A model generated the notes under the pieces. The model was not told where the DNA came from, ran no database searches, and worked only from the letters and a program-made list of their open reading frames with translations. The translations under genes and the position numbers were made by a program. Below, in pieces: positions 7,525-25,748 of a stretch of 64,000 nt of DNA. The DNA lies in NCBI GenBank assembly GCA_040767195.1, contig JAXGPA010000006.1, forward strand, positions 1-64,000, written 5' to 3'. How positions within the stretch are numbered: the stretch's first letter is position 1; each line of letters opens with the position of its first letter. Origin of the DNA: Syntrophales bacterium. Its GTDB lineage: Bacteria > Desulfobacterota > Syntrophia > Syntrophales > UBA6807.

Positions 7525-8495
7525 GGCTCCCTCCAGCAGCGGACGAAGTGCCCCTCTTCCCGCTCCTCGAGGGGGGGTTCCTCCTCCAGGCACCGGCCCT
7601 CGGCACCGGGGCAGCGGTCCTGGAATCGGCATCCCGGGGGCAGGGCGAACAGGTCGGGCACCGTGCCGGCGATGGTGGGCAGGAAACCTTTTCCCTCGCC
7701 CGCCGCGGCAAGGCGGGGAACGGATGCCATGAGGCCCCGGGTGTAAGGGTGTCCGGGCCGGGCGAAAATCCCGCGGACCTTCCCCTGTTCAACGATTTGT
7801 CCGGCGTACATGATGGCGGCGTGGTCCGCCGATTCGGCAACGACGCCCAGGTCGTGGGTGATGAGCATGACCGACGTTCCCGTTTCCTCCTTCAGCTTCC
7901 CGATGAGATCGATGATCTGGGCCTGGACGGTCACGTCGAGGGCCGTCGTGGGTTCGTCGGCCAGCATGAGCCGGGGCCTGCAGGCGAGCGCCATGGCGAT
8001 CATGACCCGCTGGCGCATGCCGCCGCTCATCTGGTGGGGATAGTTGTCCACCCTCTCCCGGGGCGAGGGAATCCGAACGAGGCGGAAGAGCTCCAGGACT
8101 TCCCGGTCCGTCTCCTTCCGGGAAAGGCCCCGGTGGAGCCGGAGCACCTCGGCGACCTGGTCGCCCACGGTGAGGACGGGGTTCAGGGAAGTCATGGGTT
8201 CCTGGAAGATCATGGAGATCTCGCCGCCCCGGACGGCCCGCATGTCCCGTTCTTCCAGGGACAGGAGGTCCCGGTCCTGGAAGAGGATTCTTCCGCCGGC
8301 ATACCGTCCCGGCGGGACCGGCACAAGGCGCATGACCGACAGGGCCAGGACCGTCTTCCCGCATCCCGACTCGCCGACGACACCCAGGGTCTCGCCTTCC
8401 CGCAGCCGCAGGCTCACCCCGTCGACGGCCCGGACGGTCCCGTCGCGGGTGTCGAAGTACGTCTTCAGGTCCTGGATCTCGAGGAGAGGGTTCAC
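7521..8495 (-). CDS. oppD: Oligopeptide/dipeptide ABC transporter ATPase (OppD/DppD type)
   Basis: [47 protein letters not shown]. Confidence 0.9.
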
Positions 8496-8505
8496 GGCTC
8501 TCCGG

Positions 8506-10032
8506 TCAGCGGCCGCCGCCGCTCTTTGCCGGGCCTTCCGTCCATGAACGGAGAAGTTCCACGAGAAGCCTCACGGAAAACCCCGTTCCCCCCTTGGGGA
8601 TGTCGGGCCGGTCCTTGGTCGAAAAGGCCGGCCCGGCGATATCCAGGTGGGCCCACGGGACCTTCCCGACAAAGTTTTCCAGGAAAAGGGCCGCCGTTAC
8701 AGCGCCTCCTTCGCGCCCCCCGGTGTTCTTCAGGTCCGCCGTGTCGCTTTTCAGGCGCTCCCCGTATTCCCGGTAGAGAGGAAGCTCCCACACGGGTTCC
8801 CCGGTTTCGTCCGACGCCTTCCGGATCTTCTCGACCAGGCCGCCGTCGTTTCCGAAAAGCCCGGCCACCTCCGGCCCCAGGGCGACGACACAGGCCCCGG
8901 TGAGCGTGGCCACGTCGATGACCGCCTCGGGGTCCAGGCGGTCCGCGTACGCCAGGGCGTCCGCCAGGAGCAGGCGTCCCTCGGCATCGGTGTTGATGAT
9001 CTCGATGGACTTTCCCCGAAGGGACCGGACCACGTCTCCCGGGCGTGTGGCCCGGCCGCCGGGAAGGTTCTCCGCGGCGGGAACGACGGCGGACACGTTC
9101 AGGGGGAGGCCGAGATCCGCCGCCGCCCGCAGGGCCGCCAGGACGGCCGCGCCGCCGGCCATGTCGTCCTTCATCTCGTGCATCCGCTCCGCCGGTTTCA
9201 GGCTGATCCCGCCGCTGTCGAAGGTGACGCCTTTCCCCACGAGGACGACGGGCTTCGCCTTCCGGCCCCCGCCCCGGTACTCGGCGAGGATGAGTTTCGG
9301 CGGTTCGTCGGAGCCTTTCGACACGGCGAGAAGGGCGTTCATGTTCATTTTTTTCAGGGCCGCCCGGTCAAAGACGGTTACCTTGAGGGGCCGGCCCTTC
9401 GCCATGTCCACGGCCCGGCGGGCCAGGAGGCCCGGTGTCATATCGTTGGCCGGCATGTTAACGAGGTCCCGGGCGAAACGGACGGCCTCGGCGACGGCTT
9501 TTCCCGCCTCCAGGCCCTTCGTGGCGAGGGCCTTTCCTTTACGGGACTCTTCAAGGAAAAGGAGGCTTTTCAGTTCCTTCTTCGACTGGTCGTCCTTCTC
9601 CCTGTAAAGGTCGAACCGGTAGAGGCCCAGGAGGGCCCCTTCCGCCGCCGCCCGGGCGATCGCTTCCGGGCCCGCCGGCAGCGCCCCGGGATCGAGGGAC
9701 AGGGCCGCCTCGGACACGCCCCGGTCACGCAGGGCCCGCACCGTCCCGGCCACTCCCTCCCGGAACCTTCCGGGGTGGAACTCCTCTTTCTTCCCCAGGC
9801 CGAAGACGGCGATCCGGGGGGACGGGAGGGCGCCCCGCCCGTCGAGGATCGCCACCTGGCGGCGCTTGCCCTGGAAGGCCTCCCCTTTCAGCCGCTCCGC
9901 GAGGGTCCCAGAAAGGGCGGCGTCGACCGAGGACGCGCCCCCTTCCAGCGGTTCCATTCCTTCGAAAACGGAAACGATGACGGCCTGGGAAGCCACTTTC
10001 GCCGGGCCCTGCGCTTTGACGGTGAATTTCAC
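8506..10032 (-). CDS. pepA: Leucyl aminopeptidase (M17)
   Basis: VGKGVTFDSGG, MKDDMAG, NTDAEGRL, ATLTGA, WAHLDIAG. Start set at GTG 10032 (RBS AAGGAG). Confidence 0.95.
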   Translation of the reverse strand: MKFTVKAQGPAKVASQAVIVSVFEGMEPLEGGASSVDAALSGTLAERLKGEAFQGKRRQVAILDGRGALPSPRIAVFGLGKKEEFHPGRFREGVAGTVRALRDRGVSEAALSLDPGALPAGPEAIARAAAEGALLGLYRFDLYREKDDQSKKELKSLLFLEESRKGKALATKGLEAGKAVAEAVRFARDLVNMPANDMTPGLLARRAVDMAKGRPLKVTVFDRAALKKMNMNALLAVSKGSDEPPKLILAEYRGGGRKAKPVVLVGKGVTFDSGGISLKPAERMHEMKDDMAGGAAVLAALRAAADLGLPLNVSAVVPAAENLPGGRATRPGDVVRSLRGKSIEIINTDAEGRLLLADALAYADRLDPEAVIDVATLTGACVVALGPEVAGLFGNDGGLVEKIRKASDETGEPVWELPLYREYGERLKSDTADLKNTGGREGGAVTAALFLENFVGKVPWAHLDIAGPAFSTKDRPDIPKGGTGFSVRLLVELLRSWTEGPAKSGGGR

Positions 10033-15970: not shown

Positions 15971-16861
15971 GTGCCAGAAGAAAAAGACACCATCGCCATC
16001 ATCGGCCTGGGCCGGGTCGGCACCGCCATGGGGATTCTTCTCCAGGCCGCGGGCTATCCCGTCACCGCCGTCTCCAGTCGTTCCGCCCCGCCCGCCGGCG
16101 CGGGCGTGGAACCGACAGGCGCCCTTTTCCATGAGAACCCCGCCGACGCGGCGGCGCAGGCCCGATGCGTTCTCATCACGACAAGCGACGACGCCATCGC
16201 GCCCGTTTGCGAACGAATCGCCCGGTCGGGGGCGGTGGGTCCGGGAAAAAAGGTCGTCCACATGAGCGGCGCCGGGGGGCTCGACCTTCTTGCCACCGCG
16301 TCCCGAAAGGGCGCTTTCGTGGCATGCATCCACCCCATACAGGCCTTTGCGAACGCGAAGAGCGCCCTTTCTTCCATCCCGGGAAGCACGTTCGGCATCA
16401 CCGCCGACGAGGCCATCCGGGACTGGGCCGTCGGGCTTGTCCGGGACATCGGCGGTGTTCCATTCTTCGTTCCCGGGAACCGCAAGGCCCTCTACCACGC
16501 CGCGGCCTGCATCGCCTCCAACTACCTCGTCACGCTCCTATACGTGGTCTCGAAAATCGGCGAAGCCTTCGGCCTCGCTGAGCGGGAAACCCTTGACGCC
16601 TACGGGCCTCTCGTCCGGGGAACGATCCGGAATATCGAGGAGCACGGCACCATTTCGGCCCTGACGGGTCCCATCGCCCGGGGTGACGGGGGAACGGTGG
16701 CGCGCCATTTCGAAGCTTTCGAGGAATCCCTTCCCCGGTACCTCGACGCCTACCGGGCACTGGGGGAGATCACCGTGGACATGGCCGTGGAAAAAAAGAC
16801 CGTGGCCCCGGAAAAAGCCGAAACCATACGATCCATATTGAAGGGAGGAAAACAGTCATGA
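15971..16861 (+). CDS. panG: Rossmann-like + DUF2520 protein, probable ketopantoate reductase PanG
   Basis: [46 protein letters not shown]-coupled to panB. Start set at GTG 15971. Confidence 0.8.
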
Positions 16862-17676
16862 GTCAGGAAGTCAAATTGAACCCCGTGACGACGTTCACCG
16901 TCCGGGAGATGAAGCGCAAGGGCGAGAAGATCACCATGCTCACGGCCTACGATTTTTCCACGGCCTCCATCGTGGACCAGGCCGGGGTGGACATGATTCT
17001 CGTCGGAGATTCCCTGGGAATGTGCATCCTCGGCTACGACAGCACCCTTCCCGTCACCATGGACGACATGATCCGCCACACCCAGGCCGTCGTCCGGGGC
17101 GTTAAACGGGCCATGGTCGTCGCCGACATGCCCTTCATGTCCTACCAGGCCTCCATCGATGAGGCCATCCACAACGCCGGCAGGCTCATGAAGGAGGGGA
17201 ACGCCCACGCCGTCAAGCTCGAGGGGGGACGGGATGTGGCCGAGGTTGTCCGGCGGACCGTCTCCGCCGGGATCCCCGTCGTCGGGCACCTGGGGCTCAC
17301 GCCCCAGTCGGTGCACCAGCTCGGCGGCTACAGGGTCCAGGGAAAGGGCGACACGGCAGCCCGGCGCCTCCTGGAGGACGCGAAGATCCTCGAGGAGGCG
17401 GGCGCCTTCAGCATCGTTCTCGAGTGTGTCCCCGAGGGACTGGGTGAGGAGGTTTCAAAGGCCCTGGCGATCCCGACCATCGGCATCGGCGGGGGCGTCC
17501 ACTGCGACGGCCAGGTCCTGGTGGTAAACGACATGCTCGGCATGTTCGAAAAATTCACCCCCAAGTTCGTCAAGAAGTACGCGAATCTGAACGTGAACAT
17601 GAAGGAGGCGGTGGGCCGGTACGTCGAGGAAGTCCGCCAGGGGGTGTTCCCGGGAAAGGAACACTCCTTTCTGTAA
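16858..17676 (+). CDS. panB: 3-methyl-2-oxobutanoate hydroxymethyltransferase
   Basis: [51 protein letters not shown]. Confidence 0.98.
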
Positions 17677-17749
17677 GAGGATCGGGGGCCTCCCCTCCGG
17701 TGAAAGGTCCGCCAGGGGGAGGCCCGGCCGTTGTTACCGGCGCCTTTCC

Positions 17750-18082
17750 TCAGGCCTCCGTCAGCGTTCCGTCGGCCAGCCTGGCCAGGGCGTCCCGGAC
17801 CTTGCCGCCGGCGCCGAGAAAAATCCGGACACCCGCCTCCTTGAGCACGCGGGCGGACTGCCGTCCGATGTGGCCGGTTAGGACGGCGTTCACCTTTTTG
17901 CCGGCTACGATATTCCCGGTAGCCGTTCCCCGGACGGTTCACTGCATGGATCGTCCCTCGTTCGGAACGGCCTCGAAGGACAGCGTTTCAGGATCGACGA
18001 CCACGTAGTAGCTGCAGCGGCCGAACCGGGGGTCGACCAGGTCATCCAGTTCCGGTCCCGTGGACGATACGGCGATTTTCAT
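17750..18082 (-). CDS. NifB/NifX-family (COG1433) protein with in-frame UGA at codon 48; candidate selenoprotein
   Basis: Manual translation: MKIAVSSTGPELDDLVDPRFGRCSYYVVVDPETLSFEAVPNEGRSMQ[TGA]TVRGTATGNIVAGKKVNAVLTGHIGRQSARVLKEAGVRIFLGAGGKVRDALARLADGTLTEA. Family pattern continues on both sides of the TGA (17939-17941). RBS GAGGAG. Absent from the ORF track. Confidence 0.85.
17902..17925 (-). promoter_or_regulatory. Candidate bacterial SECIS element
   Basis: CGGCUAC-CGGGAAUAUC-GUAGCCG: perfect 7-bp stem starting 13 nt after the UGA, with G at loop position 2. Confidence 0.6.
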
Positions 18083-18266
18083 CGGTTTTACTCCTCGATC
18101 CGGCCGCGCTGGGCCGTTAGTCTTTTAAGGAAGCCATGCCCCGGCCGTCGTCCCGCCCGTCCGGGCGGGCGCCGGACTCCTGTCGTTACCACGAAAAAAG
18201 GGCGGCCGCAAGACGGTCCTTGTCATCAAGGATGTTTGTTCTTTTCCGCTGTTTGTGCTAAATTCC

Positions 18267-18337: not shown

Positions 18338-18586
18338 ATGACAACGGCAGGCCCTCTCAAACCCCTCACGGATATGAAAACCGATGAAACAGGAACCATC
18401 GTCGACATTCTGGGCGGTGAGGGCGTGACCAAGCGCCTGGCGGCCATCGGCGTCATCCCCGGAAAAACCGTGAAAAAGATCAGCTCCATTTCGGCACGGG
18501 GCCCGGTTACGATCAAGATAGACCGTGCCCAGCTCGCCCTGGGATACGGCATGGCCAGCAAGGTCCTGGTGAAAGCGGCCGGGTGA
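18338..18586 (+). CDS. feoA: Ferrous iron transport protein A
   Basis: PLTDMK..GTIVDILGG..KRLAAIGVIPG..GPVTIKI..LALGYGMASKV; directly upstream of feoB. Confidence 0.92.
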   Translation: MTTAGPLKPLTDMKTDETGTIVDILGGEGVTKRLAAIGVIPGKTVKKISSISARGPVTIKIDRAQLALGYGMASKVLVKAAG

Positions 18587-18590
18587 ACCC

Positions 18591-20315
18591 ATGAAGATTC
18601 TCCTCATGGGTAACCCGAACGTCGGAAAGAGCGTGCTTTTCTCCCGTCTCACCGGTGTCAGGGTCATCTCGTCCAACTACCCCGGGACCACCGTCGGCTT
18701 CACCCGGGGATTCCTCAGGGTCCGCGGGGAAAAAGCCGAGATCATCGATGTCCCCGGGTCCTACACCCTCGATCCGTCCTCGGAGGCGGAGCGGGTCGCC
18801 GCCGAGATGGTGAACACGGGGGACGTGATCATCAACGTGGTCAACGCCACGAACCTGGAAAGAAACCTCTACCTCACCCTGCAGCTCCTGGAACGGGACA
18901 TTCCCATGGTCGTCGCTCTCAACATGTGGGACGACACCCGGCACAGGGGCATCGATATCGACCTGAACCGCCTCGAGGCCCTCCTGGGGGTCCCCGTGGT
19001 GCCCACGGCGGCCATTGCGGGGCAGGGCGTCCGGGAACTCGTGGACACCCTTCCCCAGGCCCGGCGGGTCGCCAACCCGCCCCAGAGCCGGGACGAACGG
19101 TGGGTCCGGGTCGGACAGATCATCGACCAGGTCCAGCAGATCTCCCACAAGCACCATCGCTGGTTCGAGCGTCTCGAGGACGCCAGCGTCAAGCCCCTGT
19201 CGGGTTTTTTCATCGCCGCCGCCGTCCTGTCCTTGTCCTTCCTGGTAATTCGATACCTCGGGGAGTCAATCATCGGTTACGGCATGGACCCTCTTTTCGA
19301 GGGCCTGTGGCTTCCCGTTCTCGACCGCTTGAGCGCTTTTCTCGGGGGCGGCGGGATTCTGCACGACGTTCTCATCGGGAAAAAGATCGACGGCGCCATC
19401 GATTTCGTCCAGTCCTTCGGCCTGCTTTCGAGCGGCCTCTACGTCCCCTTCGCCATGGTCCTGCCATACATCGTCTCGTTCTACCTCGTCCTGGGAATTC
19501 TCGAGGATTCGGGCTATCTCCCCCGGCTCGCCGTCCTCATGGACACGGCCATGCACCGGATCGGCCTCCACGGGTTCGCCATCATCCCCACCCTTCTCGG
19601 CCTGGGCTGCAACGTTCCCGCCATCATGGCCACGCGAATCCTTGAAAGCCGGAGAGAGCGGTTCATCGCCGCCACCCTCGTGGCCATCGCCATCCCCTGC
19701 GCCTCTCTCCAGGCCATGATCGTGGGCCTCGTCGGGGGAAAAGGGTGGGTGTACCTGGCAGTCGTCTACGGAACCCTTTTCCTGGTCTGGGTGCTCCTGG
19801 GCGCCATCCTGAACCGGGTCCTGTCGGGTTTGAGCCCGGAGCTTCTCATCGAGATCCCCCCCTACCGGCTACCGCCGTGGCACCTTCTTTTCCAGAAACT
19901 GTGGATGCGGATCTGGGGCTTTCTTCTCGAGGCCGTTCCAATCGTTCTCGCGGCGGTCCTCGTGGTCAACCTTCTTTACCTGACCCATGTCTTCAGCCTT
20001 CTTGCCGATCTCGTGGCCCCCGTCGTCACGGGCGTCCTCGGCCTTCCCCGGGAGGCCATCACGGCTATCGTCGTCGGGTTTCTCCGGAAGGACGTGGCCA
20101 TGGGCATGCTCGCCCTTCTCGACCTGGGCGCGCGGCAGCTGGTCGTGGGAAGCGTCGTGCTGGCCATGTCCTTTCCGTGCATCGCCACTTTCGTGGTTCT
20201 CCTTCGGGAACTGGGCCTCCGCGACCTCATCAAATCCACGGCCATCATGCTTTTTTCCGCCGTTGCCGTGGGCGGGCTCCTGAATGCCATCCTGTCTCAA
20301 CTGGGAATACACTGA
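18591..20315 (+). CDS. feoB: Ferrous iron transporter FeoB (short form)
   Basis: G1 GNPNVGKS, NYPGTTV, DVPG, NLERNL, NMWD; membrane motifs LEDSGYLPRLA, GLGCNVPA, PCIAT. Confidence 0.95.
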   Translation: MKILLMGNPNVGKSVLFSRLTGVRVISSNYPGTTVGFTRGFLRVRGEKAEIIDVPGSYTLDPSSEAERVAAEMVNTGDVIINVVNATNLERNLYLTLQLLERDIPMVVALNMWDDTRHRGIDIDLNRLEALLGVPVVPTAAIAGQGVRELVDTLPQARRVANPPQSRDERWVRVGQIIDQVQQISHKHHRWFERLEDASVKPLSGFFIAAAVLSLSFLVIRYLGESIIGYGMDPLFEGLWLPVLDRLSAFLGGGGILHDVLIGKKIDGAIDFVQSFGLLSSGLYVPFAMVLPYIVSFYLVLGILEDSGYLPRLAVLMDTAMHRIGLHGFAIIPTLLGLGCNVPAIMATRILESRRERFIAATLVAIAIPCASLQAMIVGLVGGKGWVYLAVVYGTLFLVWVLLGAILNRVLSGLSPELLIEIPPYRLPPWHLLFQKLWMRIWGFLLEAVPIVLAAVLVVNLLYLTHVFSLLADLVAPVVTGVLGLPREAITAIVVGFLRKDVAMGMLALLDLGARQLVVGSVVLAMSFPCIATFVVLLRELGLRDLIKSTAIMLFSAVAVGGLLNAILSQLGIH

Positions 20316-21881: not shown

Positions 21882-22376
21882 TCACCCGGGTAACGGCCCC
21901 GCGGCGACGACATCCTTCAGAAAGACGACCTTGTCGTCTCCGGGCCGGTAAAAGTCCCCGAGTACCGCGGCAACAGCGTACCCGTGCCTCCCGTAGAAGG
22001 CCCGGGCGGGACCGTAGGGGTCGGTGGAAGACGTTTCCACGTAGATTTTACCGCCTCCCCGCTCGCGAATGGCCGCCTCCACGAACCGGAGGAGGGACGA
22101 TCCGACGCCCTGTCCTCCCCTCTTTTCGTCCACGGCTATCCAGTACAGGTCGTACCGGCCGTCGGTCATGGGAATGGCCCCGAAGCAGACGTACCCCGCG
22201 AGATCCGTTCCGGCAAAACACCCGTAAGCCTCGTAACCGCTTTCCTCCCCCTTCTCGAAAAACGCGTCGAGAACCTCCAGGGCCACGGGGATCTCCTTCT
22301 CGTTGAAGACCCTTCTTCGGACGAGGATGCGACGAACCGCCTCCCGGTCCCCCGGTGCCAAAGGCCGGATGATCAT
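21882..22376 (-). CDS. GNAT-family N-acetyltransferase
   Basis: LYWIAV..RGGQGVGSSLL acetyl-CoA motif, IYVETSS, ARAFY..GY. Confidence 0.9.
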   Translation of the reverse strand: MIIRPLAPGDREAVRRILVRRRVFNEKEIPVALEVLDAFFEKGEESGYEAYGCFAGTDLAGYVCFGAIPMTDGRYDLYWIAVDEKRGGQGVGSSLLRFVEAAIRERGGGKIYVETSSTDPYGPARAFYGRHGYAVAAVLGDFYRPGDDKVVFLKDVVAAGPLPG

Positions 22377-22377
22377 G

Positions 22378-23370
22378 TCAGGCTCTCCCCAGGGCGAAAT
22401 CGAGAAGTTTCCCCACCAGGGCCGGAAATTCCAGCCCCCGGGCGGCCGCCGCGGCGGGAAAACCCGCGTCGGGGCTGATACAGGGGTTGGCGTTCACTTC
22501 GAGAACCCGGGGAACGCCGTCGGCGCCCAGGCGGATGTCCACCCTCCCGTAGTCCCGGAGACCGAAGAGGTCGAAGGTGGCCCGGGCGGTCTTCCCGAGA
22601 AGGCCCGCCAGCTCCCCGGGCAGTTCCGGGAAAACGCGGGTCGTGTGGCCGTACTCGAAGGATTCCGCATCCCACTTGGCCCTGTAGCCGACTATTTTAT
22701 AGAGTGTCTCCGGAAACCTGTCAAAGACGATCTCCGCCGGGGGAAGAACCTCCGGCTTGGGAAAGCCGAGAAGGGACACGTTGAATTCCCTTCCTTCGAT
22801 GTACTCTTCCACGAGAAGGTCCCCGAAGCGCTCCAGGAGGCCGTCGAGGGCCTGCCGGAGAGACCCTTCGTTCCGGAATACCGATTCCTGGTCGATGCCG
22901 ATGCTTCCGTCCTCGAGGCGGGGCTTCACGAGAACGGGATAGGGGAGAACGGAAAAATCCGGTCTTTCCTTTCCGGTCACGGGAACGGACCGGGGCGTGG
23001 GGATCCCCGAGGCTTCCAGGAGCTTCTTCGACAGGACCTTGTCCGTCGACAGGGTGATCGCCGTGGACGGCGACCCCGTGAAGGGGATCCCGAGAAGTTC
23101 CAGGACAGCGGCAGGGTGGCCGGCGAACCGGGGATTCTCGTCCACCGTTTCGCAGAGATTGAAAACGGCGCGAAGATCAAGGGACAGGAGATTCGGGAGA
23201 ACGTCTCCCAGGTTCTCCGTGAAGGGAACGGGGAAAGGGACGTGACCCATTTCCCGCAAGGCCTTCTCGACGGCGCCGGCCTGGACGAGGACGTCTTCCG
23301 AAGAAGCGGAAAAATCATAGTCCCCTCTCCGGGGGACATTGTGCACAATACCGATGCGGCAGCTTTTCAT
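22378..23370 (-). CDS. D-Ala-D-Ala-ligase-like ATP-grasp enzyme (paralog 2)
   Basis: VFNLCE, LGIPFTGS, DKVLSK, PVLVKPRLEDGSIGI, EEYIEGREF, DYGRVDIRL, LEVNANP. Start set at ATG 23370. Confidence 0.88.
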   Translation of the reverse strand: MKSCRIGIVHNVPRRGDYDFSASSEDVLVQAGAVEKALREMGHVPFPVPFTENLGDVLPNLLSLDLRAVFNLCETVDENPRFAGHPAAVLELLGIPFTGSPSTAITLSTDKVLSKKLLEASGIPTPRSVPVTGKERPDFSVLPYPVLVKPRLEDGSIGIDQESVFRNEGSLRQALDGLLERFGDLLVEEYIEGREFNVSLLGFPKPEVLPPAEIVFDRFPETLYKIVGYRAKWDAESFEYGHTTRVFPELPGELAGLLGKTARATFDLFGLRDYGRVDIRLGADGVPRVLEVNANPCISPDAGFPAAAAARGLEFPALVGKLLDFALGRA

Positions 23371-23393
23371 GACGGGTTTCCGTTTTCGGGGAA

Positions 23394-24368
23394 TCAGCGA
23401 TACCGGGCCGCGGCGGCCTCGACAATCCCCCCGATGAGGTCCCGGTAGGACAGGCCCGTGGCCGAGGCGAGGATGCAGAGATCCGAATGGACGGGGTGAA
23501 GCCCGGCGAGCGGGTTCACTTCCATGAAACAGGGCATCCCGCCGCCGTCGGAGCGGAGGTCCACCCGGCCCCCGTCCCGGCAGCCCAGGGCCTTCCACGA
23601 GGCCAGGGCGACATGGGCCGCCTTCAGGGCTTCCCGGTCTTCCACCAGCCGGTATTCGACGAGGGTCTCGTATTCCTTCTTGTTGTGATAGGAGTATGCG
23701 GCCGGTTCGGCATGCCCCCGGAGAACGACTTCCAGGACGCCCAGGGACCGCGCCTTCTTACCGTTTCCCAGGATGCCCACGGTAAACTCCCGTCCCGGCA
23801 GATACGTCTCCAGGAGGACCGGCTGGCCGTATTCCCGGAGCATGGAGAAACAGACCTCCCCGAGTTCCCCTTCGTTTTTTATTTTAGACCGGGCGCTGAT
23901 GCCCTTCCCCGTCCCCTCCGCCACGGGCTTGGCGAAGAGGGGGAAAGGAAGGGTCACCGACGCGATGTCATCGGGATCGTCGATGACGGCAAAAGGCGCC
24001 GTGGGGATGCCCCGGTCGCGGATCACGTGCTTGGCCATCCCCTTGTGGAGCGTGAGGGTCAGCGTCAGGGGATCGGAAAAGGTGTACGGGATGTCGTAGG
24101 CCTCCAGGAGGGCCGGAACCTGGGCCTCCCGCCCGAATCCGCTCACCCCTTCGGCGATGTTGAAGACGAGATCCCACCGATCCCCCCGGGCGAGGCGGGA
24201 CACGAGGCTTTTCACGTGGCCCACGCGGTCCGTTTCGTGTCCCAGGGCCCGGAGGCTCTCTTCGATGGCCAGGACGGTGTCCTCCCGGTCGAACTCGGCG
24301 GTCTTTTCCTCCGACATGCCGAGGGCAAGATAATCCGCCCGAAGATCGTAGGTCATTCCGATCTTCAT
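23394..24368 (-). CDS. D-Ala-D-Ala-ligase-like ATP-grasp enzyme (paralog 1)
   Basis: AEFD..T, VFNIAEG..GREAQVPALLE, PLFAKPVAEGTGKGI, ETYLPGREFTV, GRVDLR, MEVNPLAGL. Confidence 0.88.
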   Translation of the reverse strand: MKIGMTYDLRADYLALGMSEEKTAEFDREDTVLAIEESLRALGHETDRVGHVKSLVSRLARGDRWDLVFNIAEGVSGFGREAQVPALLEAYDIPYTFSDPLTLTLTLHKGMAKHVIRDRGIPTAPFAVIDDPDDIASVTLPFPLFAKPVAEGTGKGISARSKIKNEGELGEVCFSMLREYGQPVLLETYLPGREFTVGILGNGKKARSLGVLEVVLRGHAEPAAYSYHNKKEYETLVEYRLVEDREALKAAHVALASWKALGCRDGGRVDLRSDGGGMPCFMEVNPLAGLHPVHSDLCILASATGLSYRDLIGGIVEAAAARYR

Positions 24369-24371
24369 GGT

Positions 24372-25748
24372 TCAGTGGGACCTCGAATAAGGGCTGTCTC
24401 CGAGAGGCTCGCCGACGGTCCCGCCGTCGTGGTACCGGTAGAGTCCTCCTTCGTAGTTCCGAAGGACGAGGTCGTCGCCGTCCCGTCCCACCACGTAATC
24501 GGGCATGACGGGGATCTTCCCGCCCCCGCCGGGGGCGTCGATGACGAAGGTGGGGACGGCGAACCCGCTCGTAAAGCCTCTCAGGGCCCGGATGATCTCC
24601 ACGCCCTTTTCCACGGGGGTGCGGAAATGGGAAGACCCCACGATGGGGTCGCACTGGTAGAGGTAGTAAGGCCGGACCCGGATCTTCACCAGGCCCTGGA
24701 CGAGCTTCCGCATCGTTTCCCCGTCGTCGTTGATGCCGGCCAGCAGGACCGTCTGGCTCTGCAGGGGGATTCCCCCGTCGGCGAGCCTCCGGCAGGCCTC
24801 TGCCGTTTCCGCCGTCAGTTCGTCGGGATGCATGAAATGAACGCTCACCCAGAGCGGATGGAACCGTCTCAGCAGGCGCACCAGGGACGGCGTGATCCGC
24901 TGGGGCAGGACCGCCGGGGTCTTGGTCCCGATTCTCAGGACTTCCACGTGAGGGATCTCGCGGAGCTTCGCCAGGATCCACTCGAGCTTATCGTCGGGCA
25001 GGGTCAGGGGATCCCCCCCGGAAATAAGGACGTCCCGGACCGTCGGCGTGGCGGCGATGTAATCGATGGCCTTCTGCCAGCGTTCCGGTGTGGGGATCCG
25101 CTTGTTCTTCCGCCCCACCATCCGCGAACGGGTGCAGTACCGGCAGTAGGTGGAACAGAAGTCCGTGGCGAGAAAGAGAACCCGGTCGGGGTAGCGGTGA
25201 ACGAGACCGCACACGGGGCTGTCTCCCTCCTCGTGAAGGGGATCCTCCGCTTCCCCGGCGGAATGGATCTTTTCGTCGATGAGCGGGACGACGGCCTTCC
25301 GGATGGGCTGAAGGGGATTGTCCCCTTCAAGAAGGCTGGCGTAGTAGGGCGTCACGGCAAAGGGGAAAGCCCCTTCCCGGAGACGGAGGGCCTGCCGCTC
25401 CCGGTCCGTCAGCCGGACAATCTTTTCGAGTTCGCACAGGCTGCCGATGGTGTGGCGAATCTGCCAGCGCCAGTCGCTCCACTCCCTGTCCGTGGCGGCG
25501 GGGAAAAAACGTTCCCGGAAACGGGCGGCTTTCTCGCCGATCGGAAAGATTCGCGACGCCGTTGTTTTTGTCTGGGAAGCGAGGGGATTCTCCGTTCCCG
25601 TCGCGGGAACGGACAGGTGAGGCATCGGTCCCCCTGCCCCGGGAAGCGTGACGACCTGCCCGGATCTACCTGGAGGTTCGTCTTCTTCGACGGTTTTCAG
25701 GGAACCGGGAGGTTCGACATCATCCACCATGACGACATCGTTGGCCAT
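24372..25748 (-). CDS. kamA: KamA-family radical SAM/PLP enzyme (lysine 2,3-aminomutase-like)
   Basis: W.DWRWQ, GLVHRYPDRVL, CSTYCRYC, SGGDPL, YYLYQCD, VPTFVIDAPGGGGK. Confidence 0.92.
   Translation of the reverse strand: MANDVVMVDDVEPPGSLKTVEEDEPPGRSGQVVTLPGAGGPMPHLSVPATGTENPLASQTKTTASRIFPIGEKAARFRERFFPAATDREWSDWRWQIRHTIGSLCELEKIVRLTDRERQALRLREGAFPFAVTPYYASLLEGDNPLQPIRKAVVPLIDEKIHSAGEAEDPLHEEGDSPVCGLVHRYPDRVLFLATDFCSTYCRYCTRSRMVGRKNKRIPTPERWQKAIDYIAATPTVRDVLISGGDPLTLPDDKLEWILAKLREIPHVEVLRIGTKTPAVLPQRITPSLVRLLRRFHPLWVSVHFMHPDELTAETAEACRRLADGGIPLQSQTVLLAGINDDGETMRKLVQGLVKIRVRPYYLYQCDPIVGSSHFRTPVEKGVEIIRALRGFTSGFAVPTFVIDAPGGGGKIPVMPDYVVGRDGDDLVLRNYEGGLYRYHDGGTVGEPLGDSPYSRSH

Follow-up and report, generated by a model that had tools for sequence, protein, structure and literature searches.

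The locus studied here raises the question of whether a TGA codon inside a bacterial reading frame ends a 47-residue peptide or is decoded as selenocysteine (Sec) within a 110-residue protein, and, if it is decoded, what Sec does there. The window, a stretch of 64,000 nucleotides from a Syntrophales contig, had been interpreted previously from its letters alone (the sequence-only reading), and a minus-strand gene with a GAGGAG ribosome-binding site had been proposed. We recovered both the frame and the GAGGAG, which lies 8 nt before the ATG. The frame runs from 18082 to 17750 on the minus strand and has 110 sense codons plus a TGA stop, and its sole internal TGA is codon 48. The features of the gene are:

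17750..18082, minus strand: coding sequence of the predicted selenoprotein, a 110-aa PF02579 (ORP-like) protein, based on the ORF, Pfam and a structure model
17939..17941, minus strand: in-frame TGA at codon 48, predicted Sec; TGA in 45 of 46 genes and TGC in one
17750-17752, minus strand: true stop TGA of the predicted selenoprotein gene, from the reading frame
18091..18096, minus strand: Shine-Dalgarno-like GAGGAG; the upstream sequence is purine-rich in most orthologs shown

The Pfam family PF02579 matched residues 13-102 (E 3.3e-18; 66.2 bits against a cut-off of 26.3). This match crosses the TGA, as expected from the earlier claim that the protein pattern runs through codon 48 without a frameshift. 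The A/T-ending codons that had been described as uncommon are rare genome-wide: GCT accounts for 6.5% of Ala codons, GTA for 4.4% of Val and AAT for 22% of Asn. A promoter scan at the gene gave no result.

The sequence-only reading had also called this an unannotated frame of 111 codons. The frame stands, but "unannotated" does not, because a 47-aa piece ending at the UGA is carried by public collections (NCBI, NCBI nr, JGI, ENA and, in 12 contigs, Logan). This short form favors a reading in which UGA48 is a real stop, leaving a pseudogene, a split gene or a 47-aa peptide, or in which the lineage has lost Sec decoding. We consider that reading highly improbable, and the evidence on it is given with the results below.

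The in-frame TGA is not an error, a reassigned codon or a frameshift

For a check of positions 17939-17941 in other assemblies, contigs from four of the 24 listed sequencing runs were compared with the window. A contig from a DNA run that is not flagged as source (X5, 17880-18157) spans TGA48 with 0 differences. A contig from an RNA run (X10, 17377-18159) has 11 differences, all within 17410-17526, in panB; contigs from RNA runs over the gene are read here for presence only, as strand and level are unreadable from them. Most of the sequencing runs containing the window are from digesters or sludge. A sequencing or assembly error was ruled out by the contigs bridging the TGA together with the TGA in the order's genomes.

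Genome-wide reassignment of TGA (codes 4 or 25) was ruled out as well, with TGA terminating 582 of 928 filtered long ORFs. That the gene's own terminator is TGA also counts against reassignment. As for a frameshift, the only overlapping frame is a 204-aa shadow ORF, rich in R, P and G, that lies antisense to panB. A translational restart would depend on in-frame GTG codons at positions 64 and 79, which have no evident ribosome-binding site. Codon 64 is the first of these and lies inside the domain, which argues against UGA48 as a real stop.

The TGA codon is conserved among orthologs

In an initial survey of 41 genomes (the window's own and 40 relatives), each of the nine best matches had one TGA at codon 47/48. 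When all 339 genomes of the order were searched with a profile, the gene turned up in 35, representing five families and 12 of 72 genera. Exactly one TGA was present in 34 of the 35 carrier genomes; the remaining genome (G467), which is a single contig, has no TGA and carries TGC. A sample of 401 genomes from the phylum yielded no TGA form beyond the window genome (G000). A search at class level drew on an identical set of 339 genomes, and the clade was not found beyond them. Outside these genomes, at least 13 subfamily members were present among 80 of 589 metagenome relatives, all 13 with TGA. A single-protein search of genome contigs gave at least one ortholog among the four loci listed, one Syntrophaceae MAG record carries the gene, and a profile search of 1.84 billion representatives gave one subfamily representative (P0005) among the best 150.

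After merging identical sequences we obtained 46 distinct genes, 45 with TGA and one with TGC (L199, from G467) in the same column. The TGA genes share about 50-70% protein identity. A search with the Cys-form protein returned 16 matches: eight with Cys at the Sec column, two with Trp, one frameshifted after Cys and five from the outgroup. The Cys forms (P0002-P0008 and P0010) are full-length subfamily proteins. Thus, the orthologs with TGA or Cys that the sequence-only reading had proposed to look for exist, with eight Cys proteins in addition to the TGC gene.

The Trp forms are one single protein and one cluster with Trp in 4 of 4 members (P0009 cluster and P0011), the members of the cluster coming from three sources, and both forms sit on short branches within Sec clades. 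They seem to reflect either genuine replacement of Sec by Trp or a TGA translated with code 4. Trp at this column counts against an absolute need for a chalcogen; if the codons are TGG, the chalcogen would be dispensable in those lineages. The earlier reading had regarded Gly, Trp or Arg in close orthologs as a sign of recent nonsense mutation. Conservation of TGA in 45 of 46 genes goes against that outcome.

We compared pN/pS on the two sides of the UGA in 44 of the 45 genes, leaving out L202 because its start is ambiguous. The ratio was 0.41 after the UGA and 0.33 before it, which indicates that the half 3' of the UGA is under purifying selection as protein. A codon kept in 45 genes at this level of divergence, with purifying selection behind it, argues against a real stop.

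A conserved bSECIS-like hairpin follows the UGA

The sequence immediately 3' of the UGA contains the following feature:

17902..17925, minus strand: SECIS-like hairpin with a 7-bp stem, a bulged C, two weaker pairs and a 5-nt apical loop

The geometry that we found is that of the sequence-only reading, a perfect 7-bp stem starting 13 nt 3' of the UGA. CGGCUAC (17925-17919) pairs with GUAGCCG (17908-17902), and the 7-bp stem alone encloses a 10-nt loop with G at loop position 2. When the two inner pairs are included, the loop is 5 nt, opens with G and lies 23 nt from the UGA, and the hairpin has a predicted energy of -11.7 kcal/mol. The bSECIS model describes a 4-16 bp stem whose loop measures 3-9 nt, carries an early G and lies 16-37 nt from the UGA, with a minimum free energy of at most -7.5 (PMC13188914). 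With its inner pairs the hairpin falls within these limits; the 10-nt loop of the 7-bp stem alone is one over.

A comparable stem follows 421 of the 70,357 TGA triplets in the genome (0.6%). The 51-nt stretch alone had no extra stability relative to shuffled sequences (z 0.14; 110 of 200 as good). Because the single-sequence fold is unremarkable, the weight of the hairpin rests on comparison among relatives.

We aligned the stem in 39 distinct rows, derived from 41 of the 45 TGA genes, and found it paired in 273 of 273 cells. Three of the pairs are invariant, three show wobble variation and the seventh changes on both sides in 4 cells. The observed pairing and the two-sided cell count were matched by none of 500 shuffles, and 183 of 500 reached the count of one two-sided pair, in controls for stem pairing that are inflated by the kinship of the sequences. 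Only one of the seven pairs is two-sided, and the invariant pairs coincide with invariant amino acids. RNAalifold, unaided, predicted the same stem. The two inner pairs are kept in 33 of 39 and 36 of 39 rows, and the loop G is conserved. Synonymous change was also low within the hairpin, with a pS of 0.21 in hairpin codons versus 0.69 and 0.65 in the flanks, and third positions of the stem are locked (ACG in 45 of 45, GCT in 40, GGG in 43, GTA in 36 and GCC in 44). The TGC gene has a decayed stem (-6.6 kcal/mol, versus -10.9 to -13.1 for the four Sec genes folded alongside it), which in this one case is what would be expected if the stem serves recoding only. Conservation of the hairpin, which the earlier reading had put forward as a check, is therefore borne out by its pairing among the TGA genes and its loss in the Cys gene.

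Selenocysteine machinery in the carrier genomes

The sequence-only reading had also pointed to the Sec machinery as a check, and here the result was divided. The window genome encodes selA and one full-length selB (642 aa), both over the curated cut-off, and selC and selD were not found in its assembly, which also misses other blocks. Relaxed ARAGORN and a loose Sec-motif scan returned noise only. A 3' stub of tRNA-Sec is present at C1:720241-720279 of this genome, beside an AT-rich stretch, and resembles the scar of an element integrated at selC. Both copies of MvhD in the genome are without TGA. These three observations (no selC or selD found, the stub and the TGA-free MvhD copies) are the points in favor of lost Sec decoding.

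The same assembly, although rated 98.8% complete, also lacks uvrA, nadA, moeA, dnaX, recR and all tRNA-Ser and tRNA-Asn genes. In genomes G001 and G005, selC is flanked by uvrA, nadA and moeA. Since the neighbors of selC are absent together with dnaX, recR and the tRNA-Ser and tRNA-Asn genes, missing assembly blocks are the simplest reading, and the absence of selC and selD is probably an assembly gap. These missing blocks weaken the case for lost decoding. So do four fdhA genes that keep the UGA within an RxUH motif, with hairpins (C1:468169, C8:137755, C8:151971 and C8:157662). Among other carrier genomes, selC was found in 9 of 10 tested and selD in 8 of 10. Of the 35 carriers, 32 have selA, but so do 309 of all 339 genomes of the order, so its co-occurrence with the gene does not discriminate.

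A congener of the window organism (G001) has a second tRNA with a UCA anticodon, A1:U72 and U73 (L048; G001:C15:7918-8005), and a second selB directly downstream of it at 8096-9166, forming a selC*-selB* locus. PMC5389517 describes selC*/selB* arrangements that can place Cys at UGA, and the genomes in which it reports selC* possess a complete Sec apparatus. One could argue that a selC*-type tRNA-Cys(UCA), together with a dedicated SelB*, reads UGA48 mainly as Cys, given that the G001 tRNA with U73 upstream of a second selB matches that arrangement and that selC was not found in the window genome. We judge this very unlikely. The window genome has one selB, and selC* was not found in its incomplete assembly; canonical selC is present in nearly all of the carriers tested; and the reported occurrence of selC* alongside a full Sec apparatus makes it a back-up at most. 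In some carriers selC* may act as such a back-up.

Taken together, the conserved TGA, the Cys homologs, the kept stem and the Sec machinery strongly support the claim of the sequence-only reading that UGA48 encodes Sec with the help of a SECIS element. We conclude that the gene very likely encodes a selenoprotein with Sec at UGA48.

The protein belongs to a distinct clade of ORP/TM1290-like proteins

The sequence-only reading had assigned the protein to a NifB/NifX family and placed Sec48 in a flexible loop with Cys23, and these details are less well supported. We built an AlphaFold2 model with Cys in place of Sec (pLDDT 90.9). Its best structural match is ORP (Orp8) of Desulfovibrio gigas (2WFB; TM-score 0.94, Z 20.8, rmsd 1.0 over 109 residues), and the match to NifX (9IAN) is far weaker (Z 11.3). 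In the model, residue 48 is not in a flexible loop but is the first residue of helix 48-61. At E values up to 1, NCBIfam gave no NifB-, NifX- or NafY-specific match to the 110-aa single domain, and there was a weak match to MrpORP (E 2.4e-5). Three conserved segments characterize the protein:

18014..18034, minus strand: DPRFGRC motif (D17-C23), common to ORP-type proteins; D17, R19, F20 and C23 are invariant in 56 of 56 subfamily rows
17915..17941, minus strand: U-x-x-R-G-T-x-x-G signature, where the outgroup has x-G-G-A-G-I-Q; R51, T53 and G56 are invariant in 56 of 56
17855..17878, minus strand: TGHIGR(K/Q), T69-S76, where the outgroup has TGNxGPNA; it adds His71, Arg74 and usually Lys75

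To place the clade we built a tree from every one of the 56 subfamily rows plus 30 of the 239 outgroup rows, with a midpoint root and the base of the clade unresolved. The subfamily formed one branch with 100/100 support, within which Cys forms were nested twice and Trp forms twice. At the Sec column, the outgroup most often has Ser (69 of 239), Ala (62) or Gly (54), and Cys anywhere in that loop is confined to 2 of 239 outgroup rows. This suggests, as the simplest history, that Sec was gained at a non-Cys site and that the Cys forms are later reversions, with an unsampled Cys ancestor as another possibility. Cys23 is present in all subfamily rows, and also in 202 of the 239 outgroup rows, which are without Sec; 31 outgroup rows have Ala there. 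No CxxU or UxxC motif is present, Cys23 being 25 residues from Sec48. The mean net charge is +1.7 for the 46 subfamily genes versus -2.3 for 133 outgroup genes.

ORP shares with the Sec protein its fold, 36% identity, DPRFGR, Asn41 and TG-x-x-G. ORP Ser52 aligns with residue 48, and ORP His53 adjoins it. Unlike the Sec protein, ORP has no Sec and carries GAGI and GPKA where the Sec clade has RGT and GRK; likewise, the motifs of Orp8 proper, GAGIQ and GP(N/K)A, are absent from the subfamily. The single-domain PF02579 proteins TM1290 (1RDU), MTH1175 (1EO1), TM1816 (1T3V/1O13) and PH0822 (2YX6) also match the model (Z 12.7-17.4); they have no Sec at this column in the alignments shown and are hypothetical proteins in their PDB titles. 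NifX (17% identity) and NafY (1P90, Z 13.0) have the same fold. The Sec protein differs from NifX, NafY and NifB in having DPRFG and in having no nif genes beside the examined loci, and from NifB also in having no radical SAM domain. Arg19 of the Sec protein presumably occupies the place of NifX His35. IssA of P. furiosus and the Di-Nase domain of MrpORP are PF02579/IPR003731 domains like that of the Sec protein, but the latter has no cationic Gly-rich tail, no CxHFGHCE/CDH motifs and no P-loop domain. We conclude that the protein is, by its alignment and modeled fold, a member of a distinct clade of ORP/TM1290-like proteins and neither a NifB nor a NifX.

The gene lies beside panB and outside an ORP operon

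The features surrounding the gene are:

16858..17676, plus strand: panB, convergent neighbor, kept in 37 of 46 loci with its position conserved
17677..17749, no strand assigned: GC-rich hairpin region and possible terminator between the stops of the gene and panB (-45.7 kcal/mol for 17677-17752)
18338..20315, plus strand: feoA-feoB, divergent neighbor, in 8 of 43 loci with enough flank

Across 46 loci, the convergent panB was the only conserved partner gene that we found. Contigs from related strains show many small changes and indels in 17677-17749. Of the 43 loci whose flank is 700 nt or longer, 23 have yihY upstream of the gene; at other loci an FKBP gene lies there. The divergent feoAB had been taken as a hint of iron or metallocluster handling, but this neighborhood is not conserved. 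Wherever the genome behind one of the eight feoAB loci is known, it comes from the window's own family, and a neighborhood confined to so few loci of one family says little about function. At six loci of one family (f13), a MoaE-like gene lies directly upstream on the same strand, and at one of the six (L114:472-1416) it is fused in one ORF to a NifU N-terminal domain.

ORP genes occur in orp operons, whereas the Sec gene stands alone beside panB, and the Orp8 context of MinD-like ATPases plus MrpORP is absent from its loci. The window genome does contain an ORP-type cluster elsewhere (C1:294488-300505), whose own PF02579 genes have no TGA. By their motifs, the genes of this cluster appear to be three of the small PF02579 type, two for MinD-like ATPases, one radical SAM-like and one MrpORP-like.

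Two further observations concern neighboring and dispersed DNA. On the minus strand of the window, 21882-25748 holds a lysine 2,3-aminomutase-like radical SAM gene, two D-Ala-D-Ala-ligase-like ATP-grasp genes and a GNAT acetyltransferase, possibly a cassette for modification of a small molecule or the cell wall. A dispersed repeat of ~97 bp at L040:2455-2557 has 21 matches in the window genome at 75-85% identity.

A possible role for Sec48 in metal-sulfur cluster binding

Our proposed mechanism has three steps. In the first, which is in all likelihood correct given the conservation of codon and hairpin, SelB would bind the hairpin just 3' of UGA48 and Sec would be inserted, giving the 110-aa protein. 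In the second, based on the structure model, Sec48 would sit at the start of helix 48-61, adjoining the position of ORP His53, among the new basic residues Arg51, His71, Arg74 and Lys75. The conserved motifs of the Sec protein presumably form one pocket. In the third, provided that Sec is inserted, it is fairly probable by analogy that this cationic pocket holds an anionic metal-sulfur species (Mo/W-S or Fe-S), with the selenolate as a single exchangeable ligand, and that the species is delivered to apo-enzymes.

The analogy draws on characterized PF02579 members, which are reported to bind anionic metal-sulfur species (PMC6345978, PMC5524996, PMC13128457). NifX is described as holding the anionic cluster NifB-co in a positive pocket with a single ligand, His35 (PMC13128457), and IssA and the Di-Nase domain of MrpORP as binding Fe and S in vitro (PMC6345978 and PMC5524996). 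ORP is reported to hold a Mo-Cu-S cluster non-covalently (PMC6345978). The ability of Cys to replace Sec fits a role as ligand. Against such a role, the gene lies outside an ORP operon, and the genome has its ORP-type cluster at another site. Overall, we lean toward a selenolate ligand on a metal-sulfur cluster carrier as the likeliest role.

Two other readings accept Sec insertion. According to one, Sec48 serves in redox chemistry or chalcogen transfer, through a selenenylsulfide with Cys23 or as a persulfide/perselenide carrier, rather than as a cluster ligand. A position at the start of a helix would lower the pKa of a thiol or selenol, which would suit this function, as would the invariance of Cys23 within the subfamily and the MoaE-like neighbors at the six loci; most catalogued bacterial selenoproteins are also thought to be redox proteins (PMC13188914). 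However, the protein lacks CxxU and UxxC and Cys23 is distant in sequence, the frequent presence of Cys23 in the outgroup and its replacement there by Ala make it look like a small structural residue, and no fold relative is described as a thiol oxidoreductase in the literature covered here. We therefore find this reading rather unlikely, though worth keeping in mind. According to the other, Sec is inserted but matters little, being tolerated at this position of a carrier that acts through electrostatics, as ORP reportedly does. The non-covalent cluster of ORP (PMC6345978) is a precedent for such a carrier, and the appearance of Cys at least twice and of Trp twice inside the clade also favors this reading. 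Yet a costly UGA and hairpin are kept in nearly all of the genes across five families with Cys as the usual replacement, which points to a chemical role and makes a minor Sec improbable.

Combining the preferred ligand role with the tree, we tentatively suggest that an ORP-like carrier may have acquired Sec de novo at a Ser/Ala/Gly position and thereby gained a new selenolate ligand site for the trafficking of metal-sulfur clusters. The Cys forms would then be later reversions.

Relation to known selenoproteins and significance

The sequence-only reading knew of no established selenoprotein family of NifX-like proteins, and a 2026 review agrees, with no PF02579 entry among the 119 families of its Table 1 (PMC13188914). 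NCBIfam of June 2026 contained no matching selenoprotein model. In literature full text, no paper joined selenoprotein with "dinitrogenase iron-molybdenum cofactor", NifX or Syntrophales, and the combination of selenoprotein and NifB gave unrelated-looking titles only. We found no mention of the family in the main text of the Haft and Gwadz preprint, in deep-Sep (main text and four supplements) or in BSepDB (main text and one supplement, about 4 million characters). The family is thus absent from the catalogues covered; the candidate lists of Haft and Tolstoy 2025 and Deng 2026 could contain it.

Like the catalogued bacterial selenoproteins (PMC13188914), the family shows conservation of the UGA, Sec/Cys pairs and a bSECIS-like hairpin, alongside Sec machinery. 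It differs from them in having no CxxU, UxxC or CU motif and in having Ser, Ala or Gly, not an ancestral Cys, at the Sec column in the outgroup. From these comparisons of sequence, the protein is very probably an uncatalogued selenoprotein that is cut to half its length in databases, and its standing as a new selenoprotein subfamily within the known PF02579 fold is well supported.

With this family, the bacterial selenoproteome would gain a member that is not of the thioredoxin type, and a systematic truncation in databases, from 110 aa to 47 aa, would be corrected. ORP-like PF02579 proteins have long been unexplained and conserved ligands are few among them; a position at which one lineage keeps Sec points to a site of likely functional importance. 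The natural Sec, Cys and possibly Trp variants allow comparison at that site. The gain of Sec at a non-Cys position followed by Cys, as suggested by the tree, bears on the origin of new selenoproteins. If the proposed role is correct, syntrophic bacteria would have in this protein a metallocluster chaperone that uses selenium and serves their Mo/W/Fe-S enzymes.
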